From positions 80,390 to 144,389 of the forward strand of contig JAJZYH010000001.1 of the NCBI GenBank assembly GCA_021798195.1: a stretch of 64,000 nt of DNA, given 5' to 3'. The notes beneath the pieces are model-generated. The model was not told the DNA's origin, made no database searches, and saw only the letters and a program-made list of their open reading frames with translations. The stretch is from Thermoplasmata archaeon (lineage in GTDB: Archaea > Thermoplasmatota > Thermoplasmata > Lutacidiplasmatales > UBA184). Both the position numbers and the translations under genes were made by a program. Below, piece after piece: positions 1,227 to 59,542 of the stretch (the first letter of the stretch is position 1; each line of letters begins with the position of its first letter).

Positions 1227-1604
1227 TCAGCGGGGGGGGAGGACCGCGCTGCGGGGCCCGCCCAGGATGGACTCCGGGGAGGGAAGTCCCAGGGTGGCCA
1301 TGAGGGTCACCACCGTGGAGGGGCCCGGCCGGCGGGATCCCGAGGAGAGCAGCGACTCCACCGTGTCCAGCACCTCTCGCTTCTCGAGGGTGTTCAGCTG
1401 GGAAAGAAGAAGGAGGGAGCCGTGCGCCACCACCTCGTCGAGCCGGTGCGCCAGCTCGGGCCGGTCGTGATCCCGCAGGGCGGGCGCCACCTCATGGGCC
1501 AGGTACGCGAGGGCCTGCCGGGTGCCTTCCGGTGAGACCGGGATCGCACAGGAACGGCCCTCCCACAAGCTGGGGGATGGGTCCCGGTTCTTGGAATGGG
1601 CCAT
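1227..1604 (-). CDS. hypothetical protein
   Basis: 125-aa ORF downstream of the filament locus with no recognisable motif. An AT-rich box (minus-strand CAATTTTG, 1634-1641) lies about 30 nt upstream of its ATG. Confidence 0.3.
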   Translation of the reverse strand: MAHSKNRDPSPSLWEGRSCAIPVSPEGTRQALAYLAHEVAPALRDHDRPELAHRLDEVVAHGSLLLLSQLNTLEKREVLDTVESLLSSGSRRPGPSTVVTLMATLGLPSPESILGGPRSAVLPPR

Positions 1605-1731: not shown

Positions 1732-3489
1732 TCAGGTCCCGTGGGCCCGGGCCATCTCGTCCCGGGCCTCCTGGACCGCGTTCTGGGGCTCCTTGTAGTA
1801 GAACGCCACGAGGCGGCCCACGTCGCGGTGCGTGAAGGGATGCTGCTTCGTGGCGCGCGCCTCCCGCCAGCGCATGTACTCCAGCATGTCCACGCGCCGC
1901 TTCACCTCCCGGTCCATCTCCTTCATGGTCCAGTTCTTCATGATGGCCACCCGTTCGTAGATGTACGAATGGCCGCTGTAGAGGAACGTGTCGTCGGCGG
2001 GGTTCCAGGTGTAGACCGAGTTGGTGATGAGCTCGTTGGTCTCGGGGTCGAGACCCACGATCTCGGTGAGGTTGAAGACGCGCCGGGTCATCTTGGTCCC
2101 CACCTTCACCTGCTTCTGCATGAGGACCAGGTTCAGGGCGGAGACCAGGGACCGCGGGAGGGAGATGGGGGGGTTCTCCATCCGGTGGACCATGGCGCTC
2201 ACGCTCTCGGCGTGGAAGGTGGTGTAGCACGTCTTCCCCGTGGCCATGGCCTGGAAGACGATGAACGCCTCGGGGCCCCGGACCTCCCCCACCATGAGGT
2301 ACTGCGGGCGCTGCCGCAGGGCGGCGGCGAGGAGGTCGAACATGTCGATCTCCCCCGGGGCCTTCCCCGTCATGACGTTCTTGGCCCCGAACCCCGCCCG
2401 GGTGAGGGAGGGGATCCAGTTCTCGTGGGGAAGGTTCAGCTCCCGCGTGTCCTCGATGGAGACGATCTTCATCTGGGGCGGGATAAAGAGGAGGACGGCG
2501 TTGAGGGTGGTGGTCTTCCCGGAGGCCGTGCCCCCGCAGACCATCATGGACTGCCCGTTCTCGATGGCGATCCACAGGTACGCCATCATCTCGGCGCTCA
2601 TGGTCTTGAACTTAAGGAGGTCCACGGGCGTGAAGGGGTTGTCCCGGAACCTCCGGATGGTGAAGGAGCTCCCGCGCTTGGTGACGTGCATGCCCAGGGT
2701 GGCCTGCAGCCGGCTCCCGTCGGGTACCGTGGCGTCCAGCATGGGGTTCGCCACCGAGATGTGCCGCCCGGACCGCTGGGCCAGCCAGATCACGTAGGCG
2801 TCGAGGTCCGCGGCATCCGCGAACTTGAGGGTGCTCTTGATGGAGCCGTACTTCCGGTGGTAGATGTAGATGGGGATCCCCACCCCGTCGCAGGAGATGT
2901 CCTCCACCTCGCTGTCCACCATGGGGGCGTCGCAGAGGCCATATCCGATGAAGTCCCGCTCCAGGTAGTACATCACCCGCCCCTTGCTCACCGGGGTGGG
3001 GGAGAGGTCCCAGGCCCGCAGCTGCTCGTCCACCATCCGCCGCAGCTCGTTGCGCTTGGTCTCCACATCGGTCTCCGGGAGGGGTTGGAACCGGTCGATG
3101 AGCGCGGTCTTGAGCCGGCTCAACAGCTGCAGTTCCACGGAGCTCAGGGGGGGCTCGATGACCTCGTAGAGGTACTCGTTGCGCACGTTGTGGTAGGTGA
3201 TCCGGACGAAGGAGTAGGGATCCCGGAGGCTGCTGGTCTCGAGCTCCGTGGTGTCCGCATCCTCGAGGGGAGGGATCGGGGTGGCCACCGATCCCACGCC
3301 CTCGATGGAGGTGACGCTCCCCAGCTTCGCCAGGCGCACCGACCGGGGGAGGGTCTTGTTCCCGCGCGTGAGCGCCGCCGCCATCTTGAGATGGAGGGGG
3401 AAATAGATCTGCTTCCTCTTCTCGGAGGTGGGGACCACCTCCGAGGGGGTCGCTCCCTCCTCCGCCGCACTTTCTCCTTGCGCCGCCAT
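1732..3489 (-). CDS. FlaI/TadA-family type IV filament ATPase (paralog 1)
   Basis: 585 aa. Walker A GGTASGKTTTLNA, block VEDISCDG, block YLMVGEVRGPEAFIVFQAMATG, block LNLPHENWIP. Confidence 0.85.
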   Translation of the reverse strand: MAAQGESAAEEGATPSEVVPTSEKRKQIYFPLHLKMAAALTRGNKTLPRSVRLAKLGSVTSIEGVGSVATPIPPLEDADTTELETSSLRDPYSFVRITYHNVRNEYLYEVIEPPLSSVELQLLSRLKTALIDRFQPLPETDVETKRNELRRMVDEQLRAWDLSPTPVSKGRVMYYLERDFIGYGLCDAPMVDSEVEDISCDGVGIPIYIYHRKYGSIKSTLKFADAADLDAYVIWLAQRSGRHISVANPMLDATVPDGSRLQATLGMHVTKRGSSFTIRRFRDNPFTPVDLLKFKTMSAEMMAYLWIAIENGQSMMVCGGTASGKTTTLNAVLLFIPPQMKIVSIEDTRELNLPHENWIPSLTRAGFGAKNVMTGKAPGEIDMFDLLAAALRQRPQYLMVGEVRGPEAFIVFQAMATGKTCYTTFHAESVSAMVHRMENPPISLPRSLVSALNLVLMQKQVKVGTKMTRRVFNLTEIVGLDPETNELITNSVYTWNPADDTFLYSGHSYIYERVAIMKNWTMKEMDREVKRRVDMLEYMRWREARATKQHPFTHRDVGRLVAFYYKEPQNAVQEARDEMARAHGT

Positions 3490-3515
3490 GGTTCTTCCGC
3501 CTCCCTCCCCTCACG

Positions 3516-4535
3516 TCACAAGATGGGGACCAGGAACCGCATGAAGATCCAGCCCGCCACGAGCATCCCTGTGGCGTGCATGAGCCCCGGCGCGATGCGC
3601 CCCGTATCGATGACACCGGCCATGATCCCGTCCCCCACCGCGTGGGCGATGATGGCCACGAAGAAGGCCAGGAAGACGCCCGGGATGAGCGCCACGGAGA
3701 TGGTCACCGCTCCCGAGGAGGCGAGGCTGCCGCCTCCGGCGGAGGAGGAGGCCAGGCTGTTCCCCGCCGTGATCATCTCGGGGAGGAACGTGGCCGCCAT
3801 GATGTAGATGGTGACCAGGAACACCCCGAAGGCGATGTAGATGACCGCGAGGTAGGTGGCCATGGAGATCCTCCGCTGCTCCTCGGAGAGCTGGGTCTCC
3901 CGGGTGTCGTGGGCCACCATGGTCAGGACGTCGGCCACGTTTCCTCCCGCCTCGTTGGCCTTGGTGATGATGGTCACCACCCGGCTCGTGAGCGGGGTGT
4001 TGATCCGCTGTTCGAAGAGCTTGAGGGAGTGGGAGACCGGGACGCCCCATTCCAGCTGGCTCGCCATCCGCTTGATCTCGTCGGTGAGGGGTCCGTAGCG
4101 TCCCCGGCTGGCCACGATGATCGCTTCCGGAAGGGTCATCCCGAAGCGGCCCGCCTCGGCCACGTCGCGGAGGAAATCGGGGAGCCGGCGCTCGATCTGC
4201 GTGATGCGGCGGTAGCGGATCGTGGCCAGCGTCCCGTAGGGGGCCATGATGACGATCATGGCCATGACGGCCCAGTCCACCAGCGCATTGGTGTGCAGGG
4301 TGCTGGTGCCGTCCTCCCCGGGACGGAACTCGAACGGGATGATCCCCAGATAGGCGAGGAATCCCACCGCAAGGAGCCCGATGCCCGCCGCGATGCCGAT
4401 GTAGAGCACGTAGACGTCCTTGAACCCCGCGCTCTGGGATTTGGCGGGGAGGGTGAGGTAGCTCAGCGCCGAGTTGGCGCTCCGGGGGGCAGGTATCTCG
4501 CCGGATGGCGCATCCTTCTTGCCGAACCCGAACAT
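3516..4535 (-). CDS. FlaJ/TadC-like platform membrane protein (C-terminal-half equivalent, one T2SSF-type domain)
   Basis: 339 aa, multi-TM. Cytoplasmic block RRLPDFLRDVAEAGRFGMTLPEAI...ANEAGGNVADVL is typical of FlaJ/GspF repeats. The ATG lies one codon after the TAG stop of the upstream gene, in the same frame. Confidence 0.75.
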   Translation of the reverse strand: MFGFGKKDAPSGEIPAPRSANSALSYLTLPAKSQSAGFKDVYVLYIGIAAGIGLLAVGFLAYLGIIPFEFRPGEDGTSTLHTNALVDWAVMAMIVIMAPYGTLATIRYRRITQIERRLPDFLRDVAEAGRFGMTLPEAIIVASRGRYGPLTDEIKRMASQLEWGVPVSHSLKLFEQRINTPLTSRVVTIITKANEAGGNVADVLTMVAHDTRETQLSEEQRRISMATYLAVIYIAFGVFLVTIYIMAATFLPEMITAGNSLASSSAGGGSLASSGAVTISVALIPGVFLAFFVAIIAHAVGDGIMAGVIDTGRIAPGLMHATGMLVAGWIFMRFLVPIL

Positions 4536-4538
4536 GGT

Positions 4539-5567
4539 CTACTGCTGCCCCTCCTTGGCCATGGCGAGCATGACGAAGATGAACATCGCCTGCATGGCCG
4601 GGATCATGAAGACGATGGCATCCAGGAAGATGAGCATGTTCGCCCCACCGCTCCCCACCACCGCAAAGATGGCGATCATGATGATCAGGAACAGGGGGAA
4701 CGCCACCACGACCGTGACGAAGGTCTCGGCCATGAGCCCCATGGTCTCCACGCGCTTCAGGAGGTCGAGCTTGTTCTCCTTCTCGTACTGGTCCGCCTTC
4801 AGCAGGAAGTACGGCTTGAGCTGCCCGCCGCTCGTGGCCGTGGTCACCACGCCCTGCAGGAAGTCCTGGAAGCGCTTCGACGGGGTCCGCTGCGCTCCCT
4901 CCTTGATCGCCGTGAGGATGTCCACGCCCAGGAGCTCGGTGTCCCGCGTGATCCACGCGGCCTCCTCCGCCACCTCGCCGTAGAGCTTCTGCTTCGCGAG
5001 CTCCTTGAAGATGGTGTCGATGTTCACGTCGGCGCTGGCCATGGCGGAGACGAAGCTCATCGCCGACGAGATCCTCCGGTCGATGGCGACCCCCCGGGCC
5101 TTGGCCCGGCTGCCGGGCGCCGAATCCATGACCACCTTGGCCATCACGGGGACCACCACGGCGATGATCGCGGCCGGCACGAAGGCCACGAAGCCGAGGC
5201 CGCCCACGAAGTAGAGGAAGGCCCCGAGGAGGACCCCCAGGGCGAGGCCCACGGGAAGGGCGATGAGGTAGGTGACGAAGAGGGTGTAGGCGAGGTACTC
5301 GTCCCCCCGGATCCGCATGTGGGCCTTCATGAGATCCTCCTCCAGTTGGGGGTTCACCGCCCCCTTCCTCCGGACCCGGCCCTGGAACGTGTGCCAGGCG
5401 GCCAGCTGGAGCGCGGAGAGCTTCGAGAAATCCGGTTGGGCTCCCTTCTTCAGCCGGATGGTCCGGGCGGGCGAGGGGCGGTCCTTGGCCCGCCGGACAT
5501 GGGTCGTCAAGACCGATTTCCGCTGGGCATCGAGACGGGAAAACCCGTCGTTCACCTCGGGGCACAT
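4539..5567 (-). CDS. FlaJ/TadB-like platform membrane protein (N-terminal-half equivalent, one T2SSF-type domain)
   Basis: 342 aa. TM helices flank the block ISSAMSFVSAMASADVNIDTIFKELA...TSGGQLKPYF. Starts 3 nt after the stop of the upstream ATPase gene. Confidence 0.75.
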   Translation of the reverse strand: MCPEVNDGFSRLDAQRKSVLTTHVRRAKDRPSPARTIRLKKGAQPDFSKLSALQLAAWHTFQGRVRRKGAVNPQLEEDLMKAHMRIRGDEYLAYTLFVTYLIALPVGLALGVLLGAFLYFVGGLGFVAFVPAAIIAVVVPVMAKVVMDSAPGSRAKARGVAIDRRISSAMSFVSAMASADVNIDTIFKELAKQKLYGEVAEEAAWITRDTELLGVDILTAIKEGAQRTPSKRFQDFLQGVVTTATSGGQLKPYFLLKADQYEKENKLDLLKRVETMGLMAETFVTVVVAFPLFLIIMIAIFAVVGSGGANMLIFLDAIVFMIPAMQAMFIFVMLAMAKEGQQ

Positions 5568-5570
5568 GGC

Positions 5571-7235
5571 TCAGCCCGCCACCTCCGGGGCGTAGCCGAT
5601 CTTCTGCATCACGGCCGCCGGGTCCTTGTAGTAGCTGGAGATCCAGCGCCAGATCTGGTGGTAGTCCACGATCTTGTTCTGCGCGAGGTAGCGGATCACG
5701 GCGACCCGCCGCTGGAACTCGGCCTCCATCTCCTCGTGGGTGTAGTTCTTGAGTTCCATGATGTTGTCCAGGAGGAACGAGTGCCCCTTGAACAGGAACT
5801 TGTCCCCCGCGGGATCCCATTCATAGACCGTGTTGGTGATGAGCTCGTTGGTCTCGGGTTCGAAGCCCACGATCTCCAGGACCTGCTTCAGGCGGCGGAC
5901 CACGTTGTTCCCCGAACGGGCCTGCACCTGGATGATGACGTTCTTCAGGGCCGAGAGCAGGATCCGGGGCGTGTTGATGGGGGGGTTCTCCAGACGGTTC
6001 ACCATGCTCTTCACACTGTCCGCGTGCATGGTGGAATAGGTGGTGTGGCCGGTCGCCATGGCCTGGAACATGGTGTAGGTCTCCCGGCCCCGGACCTCCC
6101 CCACGATGATGTAGTTGGGCCGCTGCCGGAGCGCGGCCCGGACCAGGTCGAACATGTCCACCTCTCCCGCCGCCTTGCCATCGGGCCCACGGTCCCCGGT
6201 GCCGCTGCGTGTCGCCCCCGGGATCCAGTTCTCGTGGGGGAGGTTCACCTCCCGGGTGTCCTCGAGGCTCACGATCTTGGCGGTGGGCGGGATGAAGAGG
6301 GCGATGGCGTTCAGCGTGGAGGTCTTCCCCGCCGCGGGTCCGCCGCAGATGATGAGCGACTCCCCCATCTCCGCGGCGAGCCAGAAGTAAGCCACCATCT
6401 CCTCGTTGGCGGAGCCCGCCAGGATGAGGTCCACGGGGGTCCACGGCTTCTCCTTGAACCGCCGGATGGTGAAGCTCGCCCCCCGCGTGGTCACCTCCCG
6501 GGCGTAGGTGGCCTGGACGCGGTGGCCCTCCGGGGTGGTCCCGTCCAATATGGGGTTCGAGACGCTCACCTGCTTGCCGCAGCGCTGTCCCAGGCCCACC
6601 ACGAAGCTGTTGAGAGCCTCTTCATCCTCGAAGACGACGTTGGACTTCACCGATTCGTAGCGCTGATGGAAGATGAACAGCGGGATGTTGGAACCGTCGC
6701 AGGAGATGTCCTCGATGGCCTCGTCGTTGATGAGCACGTCCACGGGTCCGTATCCCACGAAGTCGCGGATGATGTAGTAGTTGATCCGTTCCATGGAGAG
6801 AGGGCTGATGTCGATCCCCCGGGTCTTGAGGTAGTTCTCCACACTCCCCTTGAGGTACACCTTCTTGTCGGCCGATCCCATGACGGTCCCTTCGGACCCC
6901 AGGATGCGCGTGAGCGTGGCCTTGAGATGCTTGAGGAGTTCCCGCTCGCTGTTGGTGAGCTGGGGCTCGATGGCCTCGTAGAGGTACTCCTTGGTCCGCT
7001 CGTTGTAGGTCACCCGGGCGTAGGAATAGGGGGCCTGGACGGCGACGAACTCCACCTCCTTCATCGCCGGATCGGTGATGGCCGGGACCGAGGTGATGTA
7101 GGTGCCCGGGAGGTCCGCCAGCGCCGCGGAGGCGCTGGGGGCGGGGGAGGAGTCCAGCTTCCGGGAGACCGAGGGCGGGAGCATGGTGAGGCGGGCCTGG
7201 GGCCGGTTCTTGGGGACCTTCACCTTGTACGACAT
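5571..7235 (-). CDS. FlaI/TadA-family type IV filament ATPase (paralog 2)
   Basis: 554 aa. Walker A GGPAAGKTSTLNA, block IEDISCDG, block YIIVGEVRGRETYTMFQAMATG. Colinear with paralog 1 over its full length. Confidence 0.85.
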   Translation of the reverse strand: MSYKVKVPKNRPQARLTMLPPSVSRKLDSSPAPSASAALADLPGTYITSVPAITDPAMKEVEFVAVQAPYSYARVTYNERTKEYLYEAIEPQLTNSERELLKHLKATLTRILGSEGTVMGSADKKVYLKGSVENYLKTRGIDISPLSMERINYYIIRDFVGYGPVDVLINDEAIEDISCDGSNIPLFIFHQRYESVKSNVVFEDEEALNSFVVGLGQRCGKQVSVSNPILDGTTPEGHRVQATYAREVTTRGASFTIRRFKEKPWTPVDLILAGSANEEMVAYFWLAAEMGESLIICGGPAAGKTSTLNAIALFIPPTAKIVSLEDTREVNLPHENWIPGATRSGTGDRGPDGKAAGEVDMFDLVRAALRQRPNYIIVGEVRGRETYTMFQAMATGHTTYSTMHADSVKSMVNRLENPPINTPRILLSALKNVIIQVQARSGNNVVRRLKQVLEIVGFEPETNELITNTVYEWDPAGDKFLFKGHSFLLDNIMELKNYTHEEMEAEFQRRVAVIRYLAQNKIVDYHQIWRWISSYYKDPAAVMQKIGYAPEVAG

Positions 7236-7278
7236 CTACGTGCGCCTCCCGTACGCTCCCTGCTCAGCGGGCATGGAC

Positions 7279-8319
7279 TCACGTGGGCGCATTGCCCACC
7301 CCCACATTGGTGAGGAGGAGAACCGTGGTCAGGCTGAAGTCGTTGACGTTGGGGACCACCACGTAGACTTCCATGGGGGTCGTGGGTCCGGCGGCCTGGC
7401 AGGTGGCCGGGTTGTACTCCTGCGAGGAACTCGGGGGTGTCGTGGCGACATCTGTGCCGGCGGGCAGGACAAAGACGAAGGGAGATTGATAGGGGGACCC
7501 GGGGGTAGAACCGGCAGGGTTGGCCGAAAGGGTGGTGTTGTAGAAGCGTGCCCACGCACAGGGCAGCGTGGTCTCCATGGTGATGTTCACCTGGATGCCG
7601 TTCGCGGATTCGCTCGAGTAGGATTGGGTGCCCAGGAGAGTGGTGTACACCTGGTCGGTGCCCGTGGAGGTGCTCGACGTATCGTTCCCCTGGACCCGGA
7701 ACAGGACCATGGACAAGGAGGTGTTCGTCCCGGTATGGGAGAAGGAGACCGAGGGGGTGAACAACATGACCTCCCCGGTTCCGGTGGGTGAGGAGGAGAT
7801 GACGGCGTCCTGTTCGAAGGTGTATTGGATCGGGGTGAAGTAGCGGTCCGGGAGGTACATCCGGATGATCCCCGTGGACGCATTCTGGTAGAAGTTCGGA
7901 ACGTCCTGCCGAGTCCCCTGGGGTCCGATGGAGTCCAGCGGGAACGAAATGTTGGTGTAGAGCCCCAGCGAGGTGGAGAAGGTCAGGATCCCCTGGGTGG
8001 GCTGGGCGAAGACGGGGACGCCCTCCGAGCGCATGGTGATGGGATCCACGACGCTATGCCCCGCCTGGCCGTCCAGGACCAGAAGGTCCACGTCGTGCTT
8101 CATCTGGGCGAACTGCGACGACACGGTGATGGAGAACTGGCTCTCATTGTCGGTCATCCACAGGGGAAGGTACTGGGTCAGGAAGATCCCGAAGATGCTC
8201 AGGAAGACCAGAAGCGCGAGGAGGGTCCCGATGACCGCCGCCACGGCCCTCCGGTCCCCGCGGAAACGGCCCCGGCGATGGCGTCGCCAGAGTGACCGCG
8301 GTCCGAAGGGGGGTTGCAT
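7279..8319 (-). CDS. archaeal type IV pilin-like protein with class III signal peptide
   Basis: The N-terminus RGDRRAVAAVIGTLLALLVFLSIFGIF matches the archaeal pilin N-terminal (RAVSPVIG-type) domain. The remainder is Ser/Thr-rich with many N-x-S/T sequons. I prefer the ATG at 8319 because the TTG at 8361 in the ORF track lies inside the putative TATA box. Confidence 0.6.
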   Translation of the reverse strand: MQPPFGPRSLWRRHRRGRFRGDRRAVAAVIGTLLALLVFLSIFGIFLTQYLPLWMTDNESQFSITVSSQFAQMKHDVDLLVLDGQAGHSVVDPITMRSEGVPVFAQPTQGILTFSTSLGLYTNISFPLDSIGPQGTRQDVPNFYQNASTGIIRMYLPDRYFTPIQYTFEQDAVISSSPTGTGEVMLFTPSVSFSHTGTNTSLSMVLFRVQGNDTSSTSTGTDQVYTTLLGTQSYSSESANGIQVNITMETTLPCAWARFYNTTLSANPAGSTPGSPYQSPFVFVLPAGTDVATTPPSSSQEYNPATCQAAGPTTPMEVYVVVPNVNDFSLTTVLLLTNVGVGNAPT

Positions 8320-8358
8320 TCGCGCCGCTCCCTCGAGACGGTTGCACCGGGAGAGCGA

Positions 8359-8368
8359 CAATTAACTA
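8359..8368 (-). promoter_or_regulatory. TATA-like box upstream of the pilin-like gene
   Basis: Minus-strand TAGTTAATTG is an isolated AT-rich decamer in GC-rich DNA, about 40 nt upstream of the ATG at 8319. Confidence 0.35.
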
Positions 8369-8545
8369 CGCGAGTTCGGGTCTTAAACCCTCCGCCCCCG
8401 ATGACAAGACCCCCTCCGGTCTCCCTCGGGGCGGGAGAGGGGTTCCGGGGAGCCTCCAGGGGACCCGGTCACTTCGTCCGGTCGGGCCGAGCCGGGACCT
8501 CGGCGATTCCCGCCCGCCGCGGACCCCCCTCCCCGAGGGAGGGCC

Positions 8546-8556
8546 AAGAATTAAGA
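8546..8556 (+). promoter_or_regulatory. TATA-like box upstream of the ACT-domain gene (probably a leaderless transcript)
   Basis: AAGAATTAAGA is centred about 30 nt upstream of the ATG at 8581. Confidence 0.4.
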
Positions 8557-8580
8557 CCGTGGGAGCCCGTCCACCGGGGG

Positions 8581-9072
8581 ATGGTGGTCCAAGAACTCAC
8601 CTTGAGCTTGCCGAACCGCCCGGGCGTCCTGCAGAGCGTGACCCAGATCCTCGCCGAGGGGCGCATCAACGTCGCGTCCCTTTCCCTGAACTCCCAGGGG
8701 CTCAAGAGCAATGTCCGGATGGTGGTGAGCGATACGCAGCGGGCCCTTTCTCTCCTGCGGAAGAATGGGTACAAGATCGACGCCCACGAGCTCCTGGTCG
8801 TCCATCTGGAGGACAAGGCGGGCAGCTTTGCCAAGGTCCTGGGCATCCTGGCGAAGCACCGCATCAATGTGGTCTCCGCCACGATTCTCGTCACGCGGGA
8901 TCGCCAGAAGGTCCTGGTAGGCCTGGAAGTGAGCAACACTTCCCGGGCTCGGCGCCTCCTTGCGCAGGCAGGTTTCCTTGCCCCCAGCGCGGAGGACCTC
9001 ATTTCCAACGAGGATCTGGTCTCCAGCCGACTCACGGAAGTACCGGGCGAGTCCGTGGGACTCCTGTTGTGA
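8581..9072 (+). CDS. tandem ACT-domain protein
   Basis: Two repeats of the ACT pattern: LSLPNRPGVLQSVTQILAEGRINVASL and VHLEDKAGSFAKVLGILAKHRINVVS. The internal ATG at 8581 was chosen because the upstream part of the 252-aa ORF is Pro/Arg-rich and contains the TATA-like box. Confidence 0.7.
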   Translation: MVVQELTLSLPNRPGVLQSVTQILAEGRINVASLSLNSQGLKSNVRMVVSDTQRALSLLRKNGYKIDAHELLVVHLEDKAGSFAKVLGILAKHRINVVSATILVTRDRQKVLVGLEVSNTSRARRLLAQAGFLAPSAEDLISNEDLVSSRLTEVPGESVGLLL

Positions 9073-9077
9073 GAGGG

Positions 9078-10274
9078 TCAGGTTCGGATTCCCGAAGGGA
9101 GGGCATCGCCCGCGGGGGAGGCCCTCCGATCCCTCCGGGGAATCTCCCGGGCTTCTTCGTGCATCGGGTCGACGGAGTGGCGGGCCTCCCGGAGGAGAGC
9201 GGCGTATCTCGTCCGGTCCGCGGATTCCACCGCTCCCCGCAGGTCCTTCAACGACCGCTCCAGTCGATTGAAGAGATTGGGTGCGGTGGGATTCACCGAC
9301 TGGATGTCGTACGAGAGGTCCGGGCTCTCTGCCATCACGTTCCGGGCGGCGTCAAGATGCCGGCGTAGGGAGGCCGGTGCACAGGTCCGTACGAGGGTCG
9401 GGTCTTGGCCCGATCGCGCCAGGGCGAGGCCCAGGATCAGGCTCAGGGCATGGGGGAGCGCCAGGGCATCCCCCATGAGGGGGTCATGAGCTTCCAGGGG
9501 GAGGAAGGAGATGGAAAGGGAGCTGGGGGCGAAGAGCGAGGCCGCCCGGAGCGCCGACGGGCGGTCGCCACAATCCATCACCAGGAGCTTCTCGCCTTCC
9601 AGGGTCCTCACGTCCGGCCCGAAGAGGGGGTGGACGCTGGAGAGGTGGAACCCGTGCCGGATCCCCCGGTGGATCCATGGGAGGAGCGGGGCCTTGAACG
9701 AGAGGACATCGAAGATGAGCGCCTCGGTCTCGGTGGCGAAAAGGGAGCGATAGATCGCCCCCGCCGAGCGCATGGGGGTGGCCACGATGATCACCTCGGC
9801 ATCCTGCGCCGCCCGGCCCAGGTCGGAGTGAACGGTCACTTCGGGAGCGGAACGATCCGATCCCCGGGGGTCCACTACCCCCACCCGATGGCCCAGGGTC
9901 TCCAGGAACTCCCGCAGCCAGCTTCCCATGCGTCCCAGCCCCCCCACGATCAGAACGTCCGATTGGCGGGGAGGGGACGAGCGGTGCCCCTCGACCCTCT
10001 CCTCCGCATGGGTGGATTCCTCCAGGAGCCACGACGCCAGCCGGGCGGCTCGGCGGGGGTCCACATGGTCCTTTGCCAATCGCTTCTTCCAGCGTTCCAG
10101 GGTGGCCGGCTCCGTGCCGTACTCCCGTCGGGGAAGGTTCAGATCCCGTTTGAGTTCCCCCAACCGGTGCGCGAGGGCCAGCCGGCGTGCGATGGCCTCC
10201 AGAACGGCCTCGTCCGCCCGGGCGATCTCGCCACGCAACCGGATCAATTGATCCCTGCGGGGATCGGACGCCAT
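9078..10274 (-). CDS. tyrA: bifunctional chorismate mutase / prephenate dehydrogenase
   Basis: 398 aa. N-terminal AroQ-type helix LIRLRGEIARADEAVLEAIARRLALAHRLGELK. This is followed by a Rossmann motif VLIVGGLGRMGSW and the prephenate dehydrogenase core (SVHPLFGP). Confidence 0.75.
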   Translation of the reverse strand: MASDPRRDQLIRLRGEIARADEAVLEAIARRLALAHRLGELKRDLNLPRREYGTEPATLERWKKRLAKDHVDPRRAARLASWLLEESTHAEERVEGHRSSPPRQSDVLIVGGLGRMGSWLREFLETLGHRVGVVDPRGSDRSAPEVTVHSDLGRAAQDAEVIIVATPMRSAGAIYRSLFATETEALIFDVLSFKAPLLPWIHRGIRHGFHLSSVHPLFGPDVRTLEGEKLLVMDCGDRPSALRAASLFAPSSLSISFLPLEAHDPLMGDALALPHALSLILGLALARSGQDPTLVRTCAPASLRRHLDAARNVMAESPDLSYDIQSVNPTAPNLFNRLERSLKDLRGAVESADRTRYAALLREARHSVDPMHEEAREIPRRDRRASPAGDALPSGIRT

Positions 10275-58161: not shown

Positions 58162-58436
58162 GCGCGGAGCTCCACCGCCGATACTCCTCCCCCGCGCAGG
58201 TGGAGAGCCTCCGAGCCGCCCTGGCACCGGACAACGCGGCGTACGTGGAAACCTCCAGGGAGGGTACCGACCTCCGTATCCGCGTCCGGGCCCGGAATGC
58301 CGGGGAGCTCCGGCGCACGCTGGAGGATCTCCTGGCCTGCCTTTCCGCCGCCGAGAAGACCTGGGACATGGCCCAGGGACCGCGCGGCGAAGAGGAGCCG
58401 GCGCCGGGGGCCTCTGAGGACGAGGACGAGGGATGA
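58158..58436 (+). CDS. Pcc1-like (KEOPS subunit) small protein
   Basis: 92 aa. The GTG overlaps the upstream stop. YSSPAQVESLRAALAPDNAAYVETSREGTDLRIRVRARNAGELRRTLEDLLACLSAAE follows the Pcc1/CTAG pattern. Acidic tail. Confidence 0.45.
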   Translation: MSAELHRRYSSPAQVESLRAALAPDNAAYVETSREGTDLRIRVRARNAGELRRTLEDLLACLSAAEKTWDMAQGPRGEEEPAPGASEDEDEG

Positions 58437-59542
58437 CCCAGACCTCCCCCGTCACGACGTCCCACGGACGGGCTTCCTTTTCCATGGGTGGCCCGGGGCG
58501 GTACGGGGTGGCCGTGGCGGTCACCGTGGCGGGCGTCCTCTCCCAGTACGTCGTCCCGGCGGGGTGGTTCCCCGCGGGTTGGGCGGGCTTCGCGCTCAGC
58601 CTCTTCCAGGTGTACGGCTTCGGGCTCCTCGCGTTCTACTGGGCGTTCCGGGCCGCTCCCCTGCGGAACTTCGGCCGCCACATGGGGGTCGGGGTGCGGG
58701 AGGGGCTCCGGTGGTACGGGGTCTTCGGGGTCCTGGGGCTCGTCCTTGCGGTGGTCCTCACCAACATCTATCTCAAGCTGGACCCGAGGACCGGGGAGCT
58801 CCTTTCCCGGATCACTCCCGTGATCCAAGAGGGCAGCCAGAACACGGTGTTCTTCATCCTGTTCTCCATCTTCTTCGTGGGGTTCGTGGAGGAGACGCTC
58901 TTCCGGGGGTACGTCTTCGGGGGAGCCCTGCGCGCACTGGGGACCCGGAACTGGGGCTGGACGGCCCTGTGGACCAGCCTCCTCTTTGCGGGGGTCCACC
59001 TCTATTACGCCCAGACGTACCTCGAGGTCTCCCCCATCTACTACGTCCGGATCGTCACGCTGGGCCTCGCGTTCTCCTTCGCCTACTATCACTCCCGCGG
59101 GAACCTCCTGGTGGTCGCGCTCCTGCATGGCGGCTTCGACGCCATGAGCTTCGGGAGCCTCTTCCCGGGCGCGCTGGGGACCGCATTCCTGGCCCTCTCG
59201 CTCCTCTTCCTCCTGGCGTGCGGCCTCTACGCCCTCGTCCTTCACCTGCGGAGGGTCGAATCTACGCCTCCCCCCTTGGCCCCGGCGCCCTACCATCCCA
59301 TGCCATGGGTAAGTCCCTCGGGGATGCCCGCCCCACCGCCCCCCCCTCCGCCCATGGGGATCTGGACCCACTGCATCCTCTGCGGGATGCCGTTCCAGGT
59401 CCCGGCCTCCGCGGCGGCCGCCCCATGCCCCCGCTGCGGGTCGTGGAACCCCCTGGGCTCCCGGATGCCGTTCCCGGGGGTCGTTCCTCCCGCACGGGAT
59501 CCCATCGCCAACATGCCGCCGGGCGCGTGGCCCCCTGCGTAG
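58433..59542 (+). CDS. CPBP-family intramembrane glutamic protease with a proline-rich linker and a C-terminal zinc-ribbon
   Basis: Motifs VEETLFRGYVFG (EExxxR), FAGVHLYY (FxxxH) and LLHGGFDA (HxxxD). Then PAPPPPPPPMGI and CILCG-x(14)-CPRCG. Confidence 0.7.
   Translation: MTQTSPVTTSHGRASFSMGGPGRYGVAVAVTVAGVLSQYVVPAGWFPAGWAGFALSLFQVYGFGLLAFYWAFRAAPLRNFGRHMGVGVREGLRWYGVFGVLGLVLAVVLTNIYLKLDPRTGELLSRITPVIQEGSQNTVFFILFSIFFVGFVEETLFRGYVFGGALRALGTRNWGWTALWTSLLFAGVHLYYAQTYLEVSPIYYVRIVTLGLAFSFAYYHSRGNLLVVALLHGGFDAMSFGSLFPGALGTAFLALSLLFLLACGLYALVLHLRRVESTPPPLAPAPYHPMPWVSPSGMPAPPPPPPPMGIWTHCILCGMPFQVPASAAAAPCPRCGSWNPLGSRMPFPGVVPPARDPIANMPPGAWPPA

Follow-up and report, generated by a model that had tools for sequence, protein, structure and literature searches.

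We analysed a window of 64,000 nucleotides (nt) from a Thermoplasmata archaeon (GCA_021798195.1, Lutacidiplasmatales; contig JAJZYH010000001.1, positions 80,390 to 144,389), which encodes an archaeal type IV filament locus close to its start. The locus is an operon-like cluster of five co-directional genes on the minus strand, separated in the list of open reading frames (ORFs) by gaps of 43, 3, 3, and 26 nt. In transcription order, the genes encode a pilin-like protein, a first motor ATPase (ATPase2), the two halves of a membrane platform, and a second motor ATPase (ATPase1). A preliminary description of this DNA, made from the letters, had already reported such a filament locus, and the measured gaps of 3-43 nt agree with it. 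The features are as follows, with lengths in amino acids (aa):

7279-8319, minus strand: pilin-like protein, 346 aa, with an ATG start and an alternative TTG at 8361
5571-7235, minus strand: ATPase2, the upstream motor ATPase, 554 aa, FlaI/GspE2 superfamily
6321-6344, minus strand: Walker A motif (P-loop) of ATPase2, GGPAAGKT, residues 298-305
4539-5567, minus strand: platform N-half, 342 aa, one T2SSF domain
3516-4535, minus strand: platform C-half, 339 aa, one T2SSF domain
1732-3489, minus strand: ATPase1, the downstream motor ATPase, 585 aa, FlaI/GspE2 superfamily
2512-2535, minus strand: Walker A motif (P-loop) of ATPase1, GGTASGKT, residues 319-326
8355-8390, minus strand: AT-rich island (GGGTTTAAGA ... 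TAGTTAATTG) upstream of the pilin-like gene, read from the sequence

Both ATPases carry a Pfam T2SSE domain (E 7.5e-34 in ATPase1 and 3e-31 in ATPase2). They share the same full-length architecture and are 48% identical over 511 residues, in line with the colinear paralogues that had been proposed. ATPase1 has the Walker A motif GGTASGKT, the Asp box SIEDTRE, the Walker B motif YLMVGEVRG, and the His box TFHAES, all of which are kept in 63 orthologues (the A1 group). ATPase2 has GGPAAGKT, an Asp box, YIIVGEVRG, and TMHADS, kept in 73 orthologues (the A2 group). The RQRP arginines are likewise conserved in the 63 A1 and 73 A2 orthologues, and all of these motifs are also found in the copies from Thermoplasmatales. 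Poor conservation is confined in both proteins to the first 65-90 residues. The claim of two intact ATPases bracketing the platform stands, with all catalytic motifs kept and every quoted peptide string present. The mean pairwise distance is 0.334 and 0.331 for the two paralogues, and the alignments indicate that neither is decaying or relaxed and that both evolve at an equally slow rate. Both motors look catalytically intact and active.

The best structural match of both ATPases in the PDB is afGspE of Archaeoglobus fulgidus (2OAP), with 411 bits for ATPase1 and 426 bits for ATPase2 and alignments that span nearly the full length (residues ~60/88 to ~546/574). FlaI of Sulfolobus acidocaldarius ranks second among structures (298 and 277 bits), whereas the Tad ATPase CpaF reaches no more than 132-144 bits. 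Among NCBIfam models, the archaellum FlaI equivalog is the best match of both, at 404.7 and 411.1 bits against a cutoff of 550. The TadA-family model TIGR03819 reaches 139.6 and 133.3 bits (cutoff 373), and the pilT_fam model TIGR01420 reaches 39.6 and 42.5 bits (cutoff 319). ATPase2 also has a Pfam match to PilB3_C that falls just short of the cutoff (E 8e-6, 26.3 bits, cutoff 27), and weak PilB3_N/PilB3_C matches occur in the ATPases of relatives.

In about a dozen ATPase representatives (P0170, P0178, P0188, P0194, P0221, P0229, P0238, P0249, P0256, P0265, and P0267; 880-1335 aa), the query aligns as two colinear pieces parted by an insertion of 270-770 residues in the catalytic domain, which looks like an intein. 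Three others (P0133, P0262, and P0227; 851-1156 aa) comprise two or three complete ATPase modules per polypeptide. These are either natural tandem fusions or gene-calling run-throughs, and they bear on the idea of a hetero-oligomeric motor.

Each platform gene encodes exactly one T2SSF domain (Pfam; N-half E 1.5e-13, C-half E 2.7e-20), which confirms the genuine split that had been read from the ORFs. The N-half corresponds to positions 38-245 of the 555-position ArlJ profile in NCBIfam, and the C-half to positions 309-538. Because this coverage is complementary, the two proteins represent both internal repeats of a single FlaJ-type platform. Neither is a duplicate of the other, with an identity of only 21% over 115 residues. 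Both halves match the NCBIfam models of ArlJ, UpsF, and BasF and none of those of TadB/TadC, and the Joint Genome Institute (JGI) annotation labels the platform genes 'flagellar protein FlaJ'. An AlphaFold2 (AF2) model of the N-half alone had low confidence (predicted local distance difference test, pLDDT, 68.6; predicted template modelling score, pTM, 0.39), and neither Foldseek nor a PDB profile search returned a meaningful match for it.

At the junction of the two platform genes (4533-4541, minus strand), the TAG stop of the N-half, an ACC codon, and the ATG of the C-half share one frame (TAG ACC ATG), and read-through of this single TAG in the window genome would give a fused platform of 682 aa. 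We searched 5.8 billion proteins for homologues of the N-half and inspected the best 120 of the 1783 found for length and domains: all are 303-359 aa long with a single T2SSF domain. In 74 related loci, the junction has TAA, TGA, or TAG stops, and the genes are mostly in different frames or overlap. A TAG read-through or a nonsense mutation as the origin of the split is excluded by these varied stops, the shifted frames, and the half length of the close homologues. Judging by these sequences, the fission of the platform is genuine and old. In one contig (L092, 6001-11369; GCA_002838935.1), KaiC-like ATPases and a Roadblock/LC7 gene come first, then a related ATPase of 862 aa, and then two T2SSF genes (293 and 631 aa). 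This locus has no second motor ATPase. A split platform occurs there with a single ATPase, and the two traits are therefore separable.

We scanned for conservation with one genome per GTDB species and found an N-half relative in 263 genomes. Gene order and orthology were counted in the best 80 of these 263 relatives (50-65% identity) plus a distant relative, L001, by mapping the five window proteins on their loci. The metagenome-assembled genomes (MAGs) of the best 80 are labelled Thermoplasmata, Methanomassiliicoccales/-aceae, and Candidatus Lutacidiplasmatales. All 58 loci with room on both sides keep the order ATPase2-like, N-half, C-half, ATPase1-like, so the arrangement is not the recent local duplication to which, by the preliminary description, a lack of conserved order would have pointed. 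The upstream ATPases are always nearest to ATPase2 (74/74) and the downstream ATPases always nearest to ATPase1 (63/63). A recent local duplication is also ruled out because orthologues are closer than paralogues (63-80% identity to the window counterpart versus 48% between the two) and because the A1 and A2 clades each have 100% bootstrap support in neighbour-joining (NJ) trees. These trees were built first with ~115 outgroup representatives and then with a reduced set and 100 bootstraps. A search of 1.84 billion representatives with ATPase1, in which clustering at 50% identity had collapsed the orthologue clades, served only for outgroups and the choice of genomic contexts. Two contigs that carry the operon (L010, JAKALO010000209.1, and L080, DAIDCO010000078.1) come from MAGs labelled 'Deltaproteobacteria bacterium' and 'bacterium', which is probably binning contamination.

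The same four-gene core is found in Thermoplasmatales, namely in a Cuniculiplasma-like contig (L084) and two other Thermoplasmatales-type contigs, and also in two further metagenomic lineages. The layout is conserved across at least three orders of Thermoplasmata. The upstream ATPases of Thermoplasmatales score 387-443 bits with ATPase2 versus 347-374 bits with ATPase1, and the downstream ATPases score 357-452 bits with ATPase1 versus 342-416 bits with ATPase2; paralogues within one genome score lowest with each other (295-328 bits). We defined 40 signature columns in which A1 and A2 each reach at least 90% conservation but differ from one another. At these columns, the upstream copies of Thermoplasmatales have the A2 state at 15-20 and the A1 state at 5-7; in the downstream copies, 13-15 columns are in the A1 state and 5-11 in the A2 state. 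The P-loop is one example, reading G.P..GKT in all upstream copies versus GGT.SGKT downstream; others are the residues at A2 positions 238 (His vs Ser) and 413 (Asn vs His). We infer one ancient ATPase duplication, which would predate the split of the Thermoplasmata orders.

The layout has a published counterpart. A study that appeared in ISME J in August 2025 (PMC12448462) solved the pilus of Cuniculiplasma divulgatum and described a machinery operon with two ATPases (CdiPE1 and CdiPE2) and a platform split as cdiPFa/cdiPFb, with the pilin genes ~500 kb away. The authors termed this layout "unique" among archaeal operons and the second ATPase "enigmatic". We took the CdiPFa,b sequence from the supplement of that paper, read it by optical character recognition (OCR), and compared it with the window by BLASTP. 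Residues 63-339 of the N-half align with residues 48-319 of CdiPFa (31% identity, E 1e-35), and the C-half aligns with the CdiPFb part (residues 371-594 of the published sequence; 38% identity, E 3e-42). The split point is equivalent in the two platforms. Contig L084 encodes a CdiPFa homologue that is 88% identical to the published sequence as read by OCR, and its gene order is ATPase (525 aa), T2SSF (324 aa), T2SSF (284 aa), ATPase (529 aa). The layout had been put forward as undescribed, which the published CdiPE1/CdiPE2 and CdiPFa/CdiPFb contradict, and the further idea that the ATPases are distinct from those of described two-ATPase archaeal loci has essentially fallen with the homologous C. 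divulgatum locus.

The pilin-like protein has a class III signal with a cleavage-site-like R-A/VAAVIGTLLALLVF (R-A/VAAVIG). The consensus of 31 homologues, RR..RG/VVAVIGTLLALLVF...PLWMTDNE, follows the class III signal-peptide pattern and agrees with the earlier assignment. The protein is the sole candidate with such a signal in the 64-kb window. It has 295 homologues in the databases, almost all unnamed, including one of 346 aa that is 99% identical (P0314). The AF2 model (pLDDT 85, pTM 0.79) has a 62-residue N-terminal helix (residues 22-83) followed by a beta-rich head, a predicted shape that corresponds to the generic pilin "lollipop". No Pfam domain was found in the protein, and Foldseek returned no PDB fold match at E <= 0.001. 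A homologue lies upstream of the operon in all 69 related loci with room for it. The protein is probably a minor or accessory pilin. We prefer this to a filament-forming major pilin because its 346 aa fit the long euryarchaeal "minor pilin" of Makarova et al., the 'signature minor pilin' arCOG02911, which is 250-550 aa long, FlaFind-positive, and has an all-beta head (Makarova 2016, PMC4858521).

In contig L089 (10989-11837), a pilin-like gene (EEG/VASAVGAIFAIL...SYVPAEM) is located downstream of the second ATPase and not upstream of the first. A Thermoplasmatales-type contig (L086, 3773-4306) encodes a CdiPB-like pilin of 177 aa (Pfam Pilin_N, DKA/VSPIIATILL) ~2 kb upstream of the operon, and its N-half platform gene (8001-9617) encodes 538 aa owing to an N-terminal extension.

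The AT-rich island at 8355-8390, in a genome of 68% GC, may be a candidate archaeal promoter of the operon, with a TATA box and a transcription factor B recognition element (BRE). Shine-Dalgarno-like motifs are present 8 nt before the ATG of the pilin-like gene at 8319 (GGGAG) and before ATPase1 (GGAGG). The operon is flanked by ordinary metabolic genes for a dehydrogenase, an ACT-domain protein, a chorismate mutase/prephenate dehydrogenase, a disulfide reductase, a redoxin, and a flavin mononucleotide (FMN) dehydrogenase. As previously stated for this DNA, no archaellum accessory genes (ArlC, D, E or X, F, G, and H) occur in the flanks, nor does an archaellin (ArlB) gene, and the related loci likewise lack them. 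The operon has no KaiC/FlaH or TadZ gene, and tblastn found no CdiPB-like pilin gene in the 64-kb window (E >= 1.1).

The ACT-domain gene (8314-9072, plus strand) is divergent from the pilus operon, as it is in the distant relatives L001 (6768-7256) and L090 (14-502); it is a conserved neighbour with no obvious link to pili. A co-directional ORF of 125 aa (1227-1604, minus strand) without a Pfam match lies 127 nt downstream of ATPase1. Its position is not conserved in L001, where a DNA methylase comes after the operon. A T-rich stretch between this ORF and ATPase1 (ATTTTG, ~1632-1637) may be the terminator of the operon. An Rce1-like CAAX protease (58433-59542, plus strand; Pfam E 7e-15) is encoded 50 kb from the operon, and a connection between the two is speculative.

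We consider it likely that the five genes form a single operon for the assembly machine of a CdiP-type, non-archaellar type IV pilus in which both ATPases serve one mixed motor. By homology, prepilins with class III signal peptides would come from the local 346-aa pilin-like gene and from one or more major pilin genes elsewhere in the genome, and would be cleaved by a prepilin peptidase that is also encoded elsewhere. The platform of N-half and C-half, which would replace the two FlaJ/PilC repeats, would lift the pilins from the membrane into the filament, powered by ATP hydrolysis in hexameric FlaI/GspE2-type ATPases docked beneath it. Both ATPases may drive this one platform together, in a mixed or alternating motor such as an A1/A2 hetero-hexamer that matches the heteromeric N-half/C-half platform. 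We favour such a joint motor over an extension/retraction pair because the two ATPase genes are packed closely with the split platform genes, are under equal constraint, and are never lost one without the other. We also think it more likely than one copy acting as a spare or a regulator. By analogy with the Cuniculiplasma pilus, the expected function is surface adhesion or biofilm formation.

Several points weigh against this reading. A scan for GxGDxK-type motifs and a Pfam search of five ORFs with multiple transmembrane segments found no A24 prepilin peptidase in the 64-kb window, as had been noted before, and no major pilin is encoded in the window. We infer the gene order of C. divulgatum S5 from contig L084, whose copies were also used for the ATPase pairing. 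A phylogeny of the ATPases had been suggested as a check; the A1 and A2 clades proved robust in it, but the deep NJ nodes are weak, with 6% bootstrap for the upstream Thermoplasmatales copies joining the A2 clade and 0% for the downstream copies joining the A1 clade. Because of these weak nodes, the case for orthology with ATPases of the Cuniculiplasma type is built on synteny, on pairwise scores, and on signature residues. For the hetero-hexamer, mirror-tree partial correlations are 0.41 between ATPase1 and the C-half, -0.12 between ATPase1 and the N-half, and ~0.38 between ATPase2 and both halves; this signal is exploratory and statistically uncontrolled, and we take it as a lead and not as evidence.

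The ATPases could instead be an extension motor and a dedicated retraction motor, as in PilB/PilT but independently evolved, which would make one of them the first dedicated archaeal retraction ATPase. We regard this as unlikely. Both paralogues are intact, anciently diverged, and universally retained, they have fixed paralogue-specific substitutions in the P-loop (Pro in A2) and near the Walker B motif and the His box, and the analogy was raised by the authors of the CdiP study (PMC12448462). However, C. divulgatum cells, which have a homologous machine, adhered and did not twitch (PMC12448462), and two further reports describe a single bifunctional ATPase as retracting archaeal Aap pili (PMC11178785) and bacterial Tad pili (PMC6920026), so that one ATPase suffices there. 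The two window ATPases also share the same full-length architecture, and both are far below the pilT_fam cutoff (40-43 bits vs 319).

It is less probable still that the ATPases form two alternative homo-hexameric motors that use one platform for different pilin sets, for different growth conditions, or for priming with minor pilins versus elongation with major pilins. Archaeal PilB/PilC modules do assemble pilins encoded in trans, sometimes several (PMC4858521; PMC12448462), and only the pilin-like gene, not that of the major pilin, is linked to the operon. Yet the tight operon with its 3-nt junctions points to co-expression rather than differential use, RNA sequencing of C. divulgatum revealed no growth-phase differences for the machinery genes (PMC12448462), and neither ATPase copy is lost in any of the 58 complete loci.

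A placement of the locus with archaellum cores or with Epd/Tad-type pili, and not with CdiP-type pili, is very improbable. The 'flagellar protein FlaJ' labels of JGI, the FlaI model as best NCBIfam match of both ATPases, and the two platform genes, which Epd and Tad also have, would speak for it. Against it, the FlaI matches (405 and 411 bits) are under the 550-bit cutoff and no ArlB/C/D/F/G/H genes are nearby. Both ATPases match afGspE with 411-426 bits versus 132-144 bits for CpaF and 133-140 bits for the TadA-family model (cutoff 373), the platform halves match ArlJ/UpsF/BasF and not TadB/TadC, and Epd and Tad have one ATPase together with TadZ or FlaH.

Some Thermoplasmata (Methanomassiliicoccales) recode TAG, and the in-frame TAG with the ATG of the C-half one codon on could suggest that the split is a nonsense mutation, a sequencing error, or pyrrolysine-type recoding, with the second ATPase a recent duplicate being lost; the chance of this is negligible, and the sequences already refute it, as the split is present in all 120 best homologues and 74 related loci with varied stops and mostly frame-shifted junctions, and the paralogues are only 48% identical, each a fully supported (100%) clade across many genomes, under equal constraint.

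A broader proposal, which we put forward tentatively and hold to be possible though doubtful, is that Thermoplasmata have an archaeal two-motor type IV machine that arose independently of PilB/PilT. It would have either a dedicated retraction paralogue or an obligate, alternating A1/A2 hetero-hexamer, three-fold and matching an alternating N-half/C-half platform, and the duplication and the fission would be co-adapted and fixed before the Thermoplasmata orders diverged.

The system is not of a new kind, and split platforms have been known in archaea for a decade. What is new here is that the architecture appears to be ancient and near-universal in Thermoplasmata and to carry paralogue-specific signatures. 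Far from being peculiar to one acidophile, the design is the strictly syntenic standard for pilus machines in hundreds of Thermoplasmata species, methanogenic and soil lineages among them, with both motors intact and equally constrained since an ancient duplication. A literature search on pili of Lutacidiplasmatales found nothing. The paralogue-specific signature residues and the paired orthologue alignments turn a single-organism curiosity into a comparative data set, which serves the question of whether heteromeric type IV motors are possible or whether archaea have a retraction motor of their own.

Compared with described systems, the machine in the window resembles the Aap (AapE/AapF) and Ups (UpsE/UpsF) systems of Sulfolobus as a non-archaellar adhesion pilus with an ATPase and a FlaJ-type platform, and its platform halves match the UpsF model. 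Aap and Ups, in contrast, have one ATPase and one fused platform, and Aap needs AapX (PMC12448462), none of which is found in the window.

Bacterial type IVa pili also have two paralogous hexameric secretion ATPases, PilB and PilT, per filament machine. PilT lacks the N-terminal domains of PilB and is usually encoded away from pilB/pilC. In the window, both ATPases share one architecture, flank the platform genes, and have no specific similarity to PilT, and the one studied relative of the system, that of C. divulgatum, showed no twitching (PMC12448462).

Epd (EpdL with EpdJ/EpdK) and Tad (TadA with TadB/TadC) share with the window two adjacent platform genes of one T2SSF domain each. In Tad, the gene order is tadB then tadC. 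The preliminary description had credited Epd with one two-domain platform and had taken pairs of one-domain platforms as a hallmark of bacterial Tad. This does not hold: the Epd pilus of Methanococcus maripaludis requires EpdJ and EpdK (PMC4371748), Epd and Tad share the fission of the two-repeat platform gene (Denise et al., PMC6668835; PMC6711533), and crenarchaeal TadC-like platforms are encoded in one or two genes (Makarova 2016, PMC4858521). Epd and Tad have a single ATPase with TadZ or FlaH (PMC6668835) versus two T2SSE ATPases in the window, whose kinship to CpaF/TadA is distant. Of the Tad proteins, TadB is the equivalent of the C-half and TadC that of the N-half (PMC6668835), whereas the window halves are colinear with the ancestral gene, N-half then C-half. 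These differences point to a platform fission in the window lineage that was independent of the Epd/Tad fission. The family matches of the ATPases and of the platform halves place the system on the non-archaellar, non-Epd/Tad side of archaeal type IV pili.

The euryarchaeal 'clade 2' pili (PilB3/PilC3 of Haloferax volcanii, afGspE) are closer to the window in their ATPase match and the weak PilB3_N/PilB3_C matches. Their pilins are supplied in trans, and the long, beta-rich, locus-linked pilin of the window recalls arCOG02911, to which we liken it by description only. As described, they have one ATPase per locus versus two in the window.

The CdiP system shares with the window two full-length FlaI-superfamily ATPases and a platform split into N-half and C-half. 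In both, no AapX gene is nearby and the major pilin is encoded outside the operon, and the upstream and downstream ATPases have paralogue-specific signature residues in common. The ATPases are strongly diverged between the two systems (36-46% identity), and the 346-aa pilin-like gene, which is fixed upstream in the window and in 69 of 69 relatives, is not at that position in Thermoplasmatales loci. The window organism belongs to a high-GC (~68%), non-Thermoplasmatales lineage of Thermoplasmata. By its homology and its shared architecture, the window locus appears to be a further example of the design published in 2025 for Cuniculiplasma.

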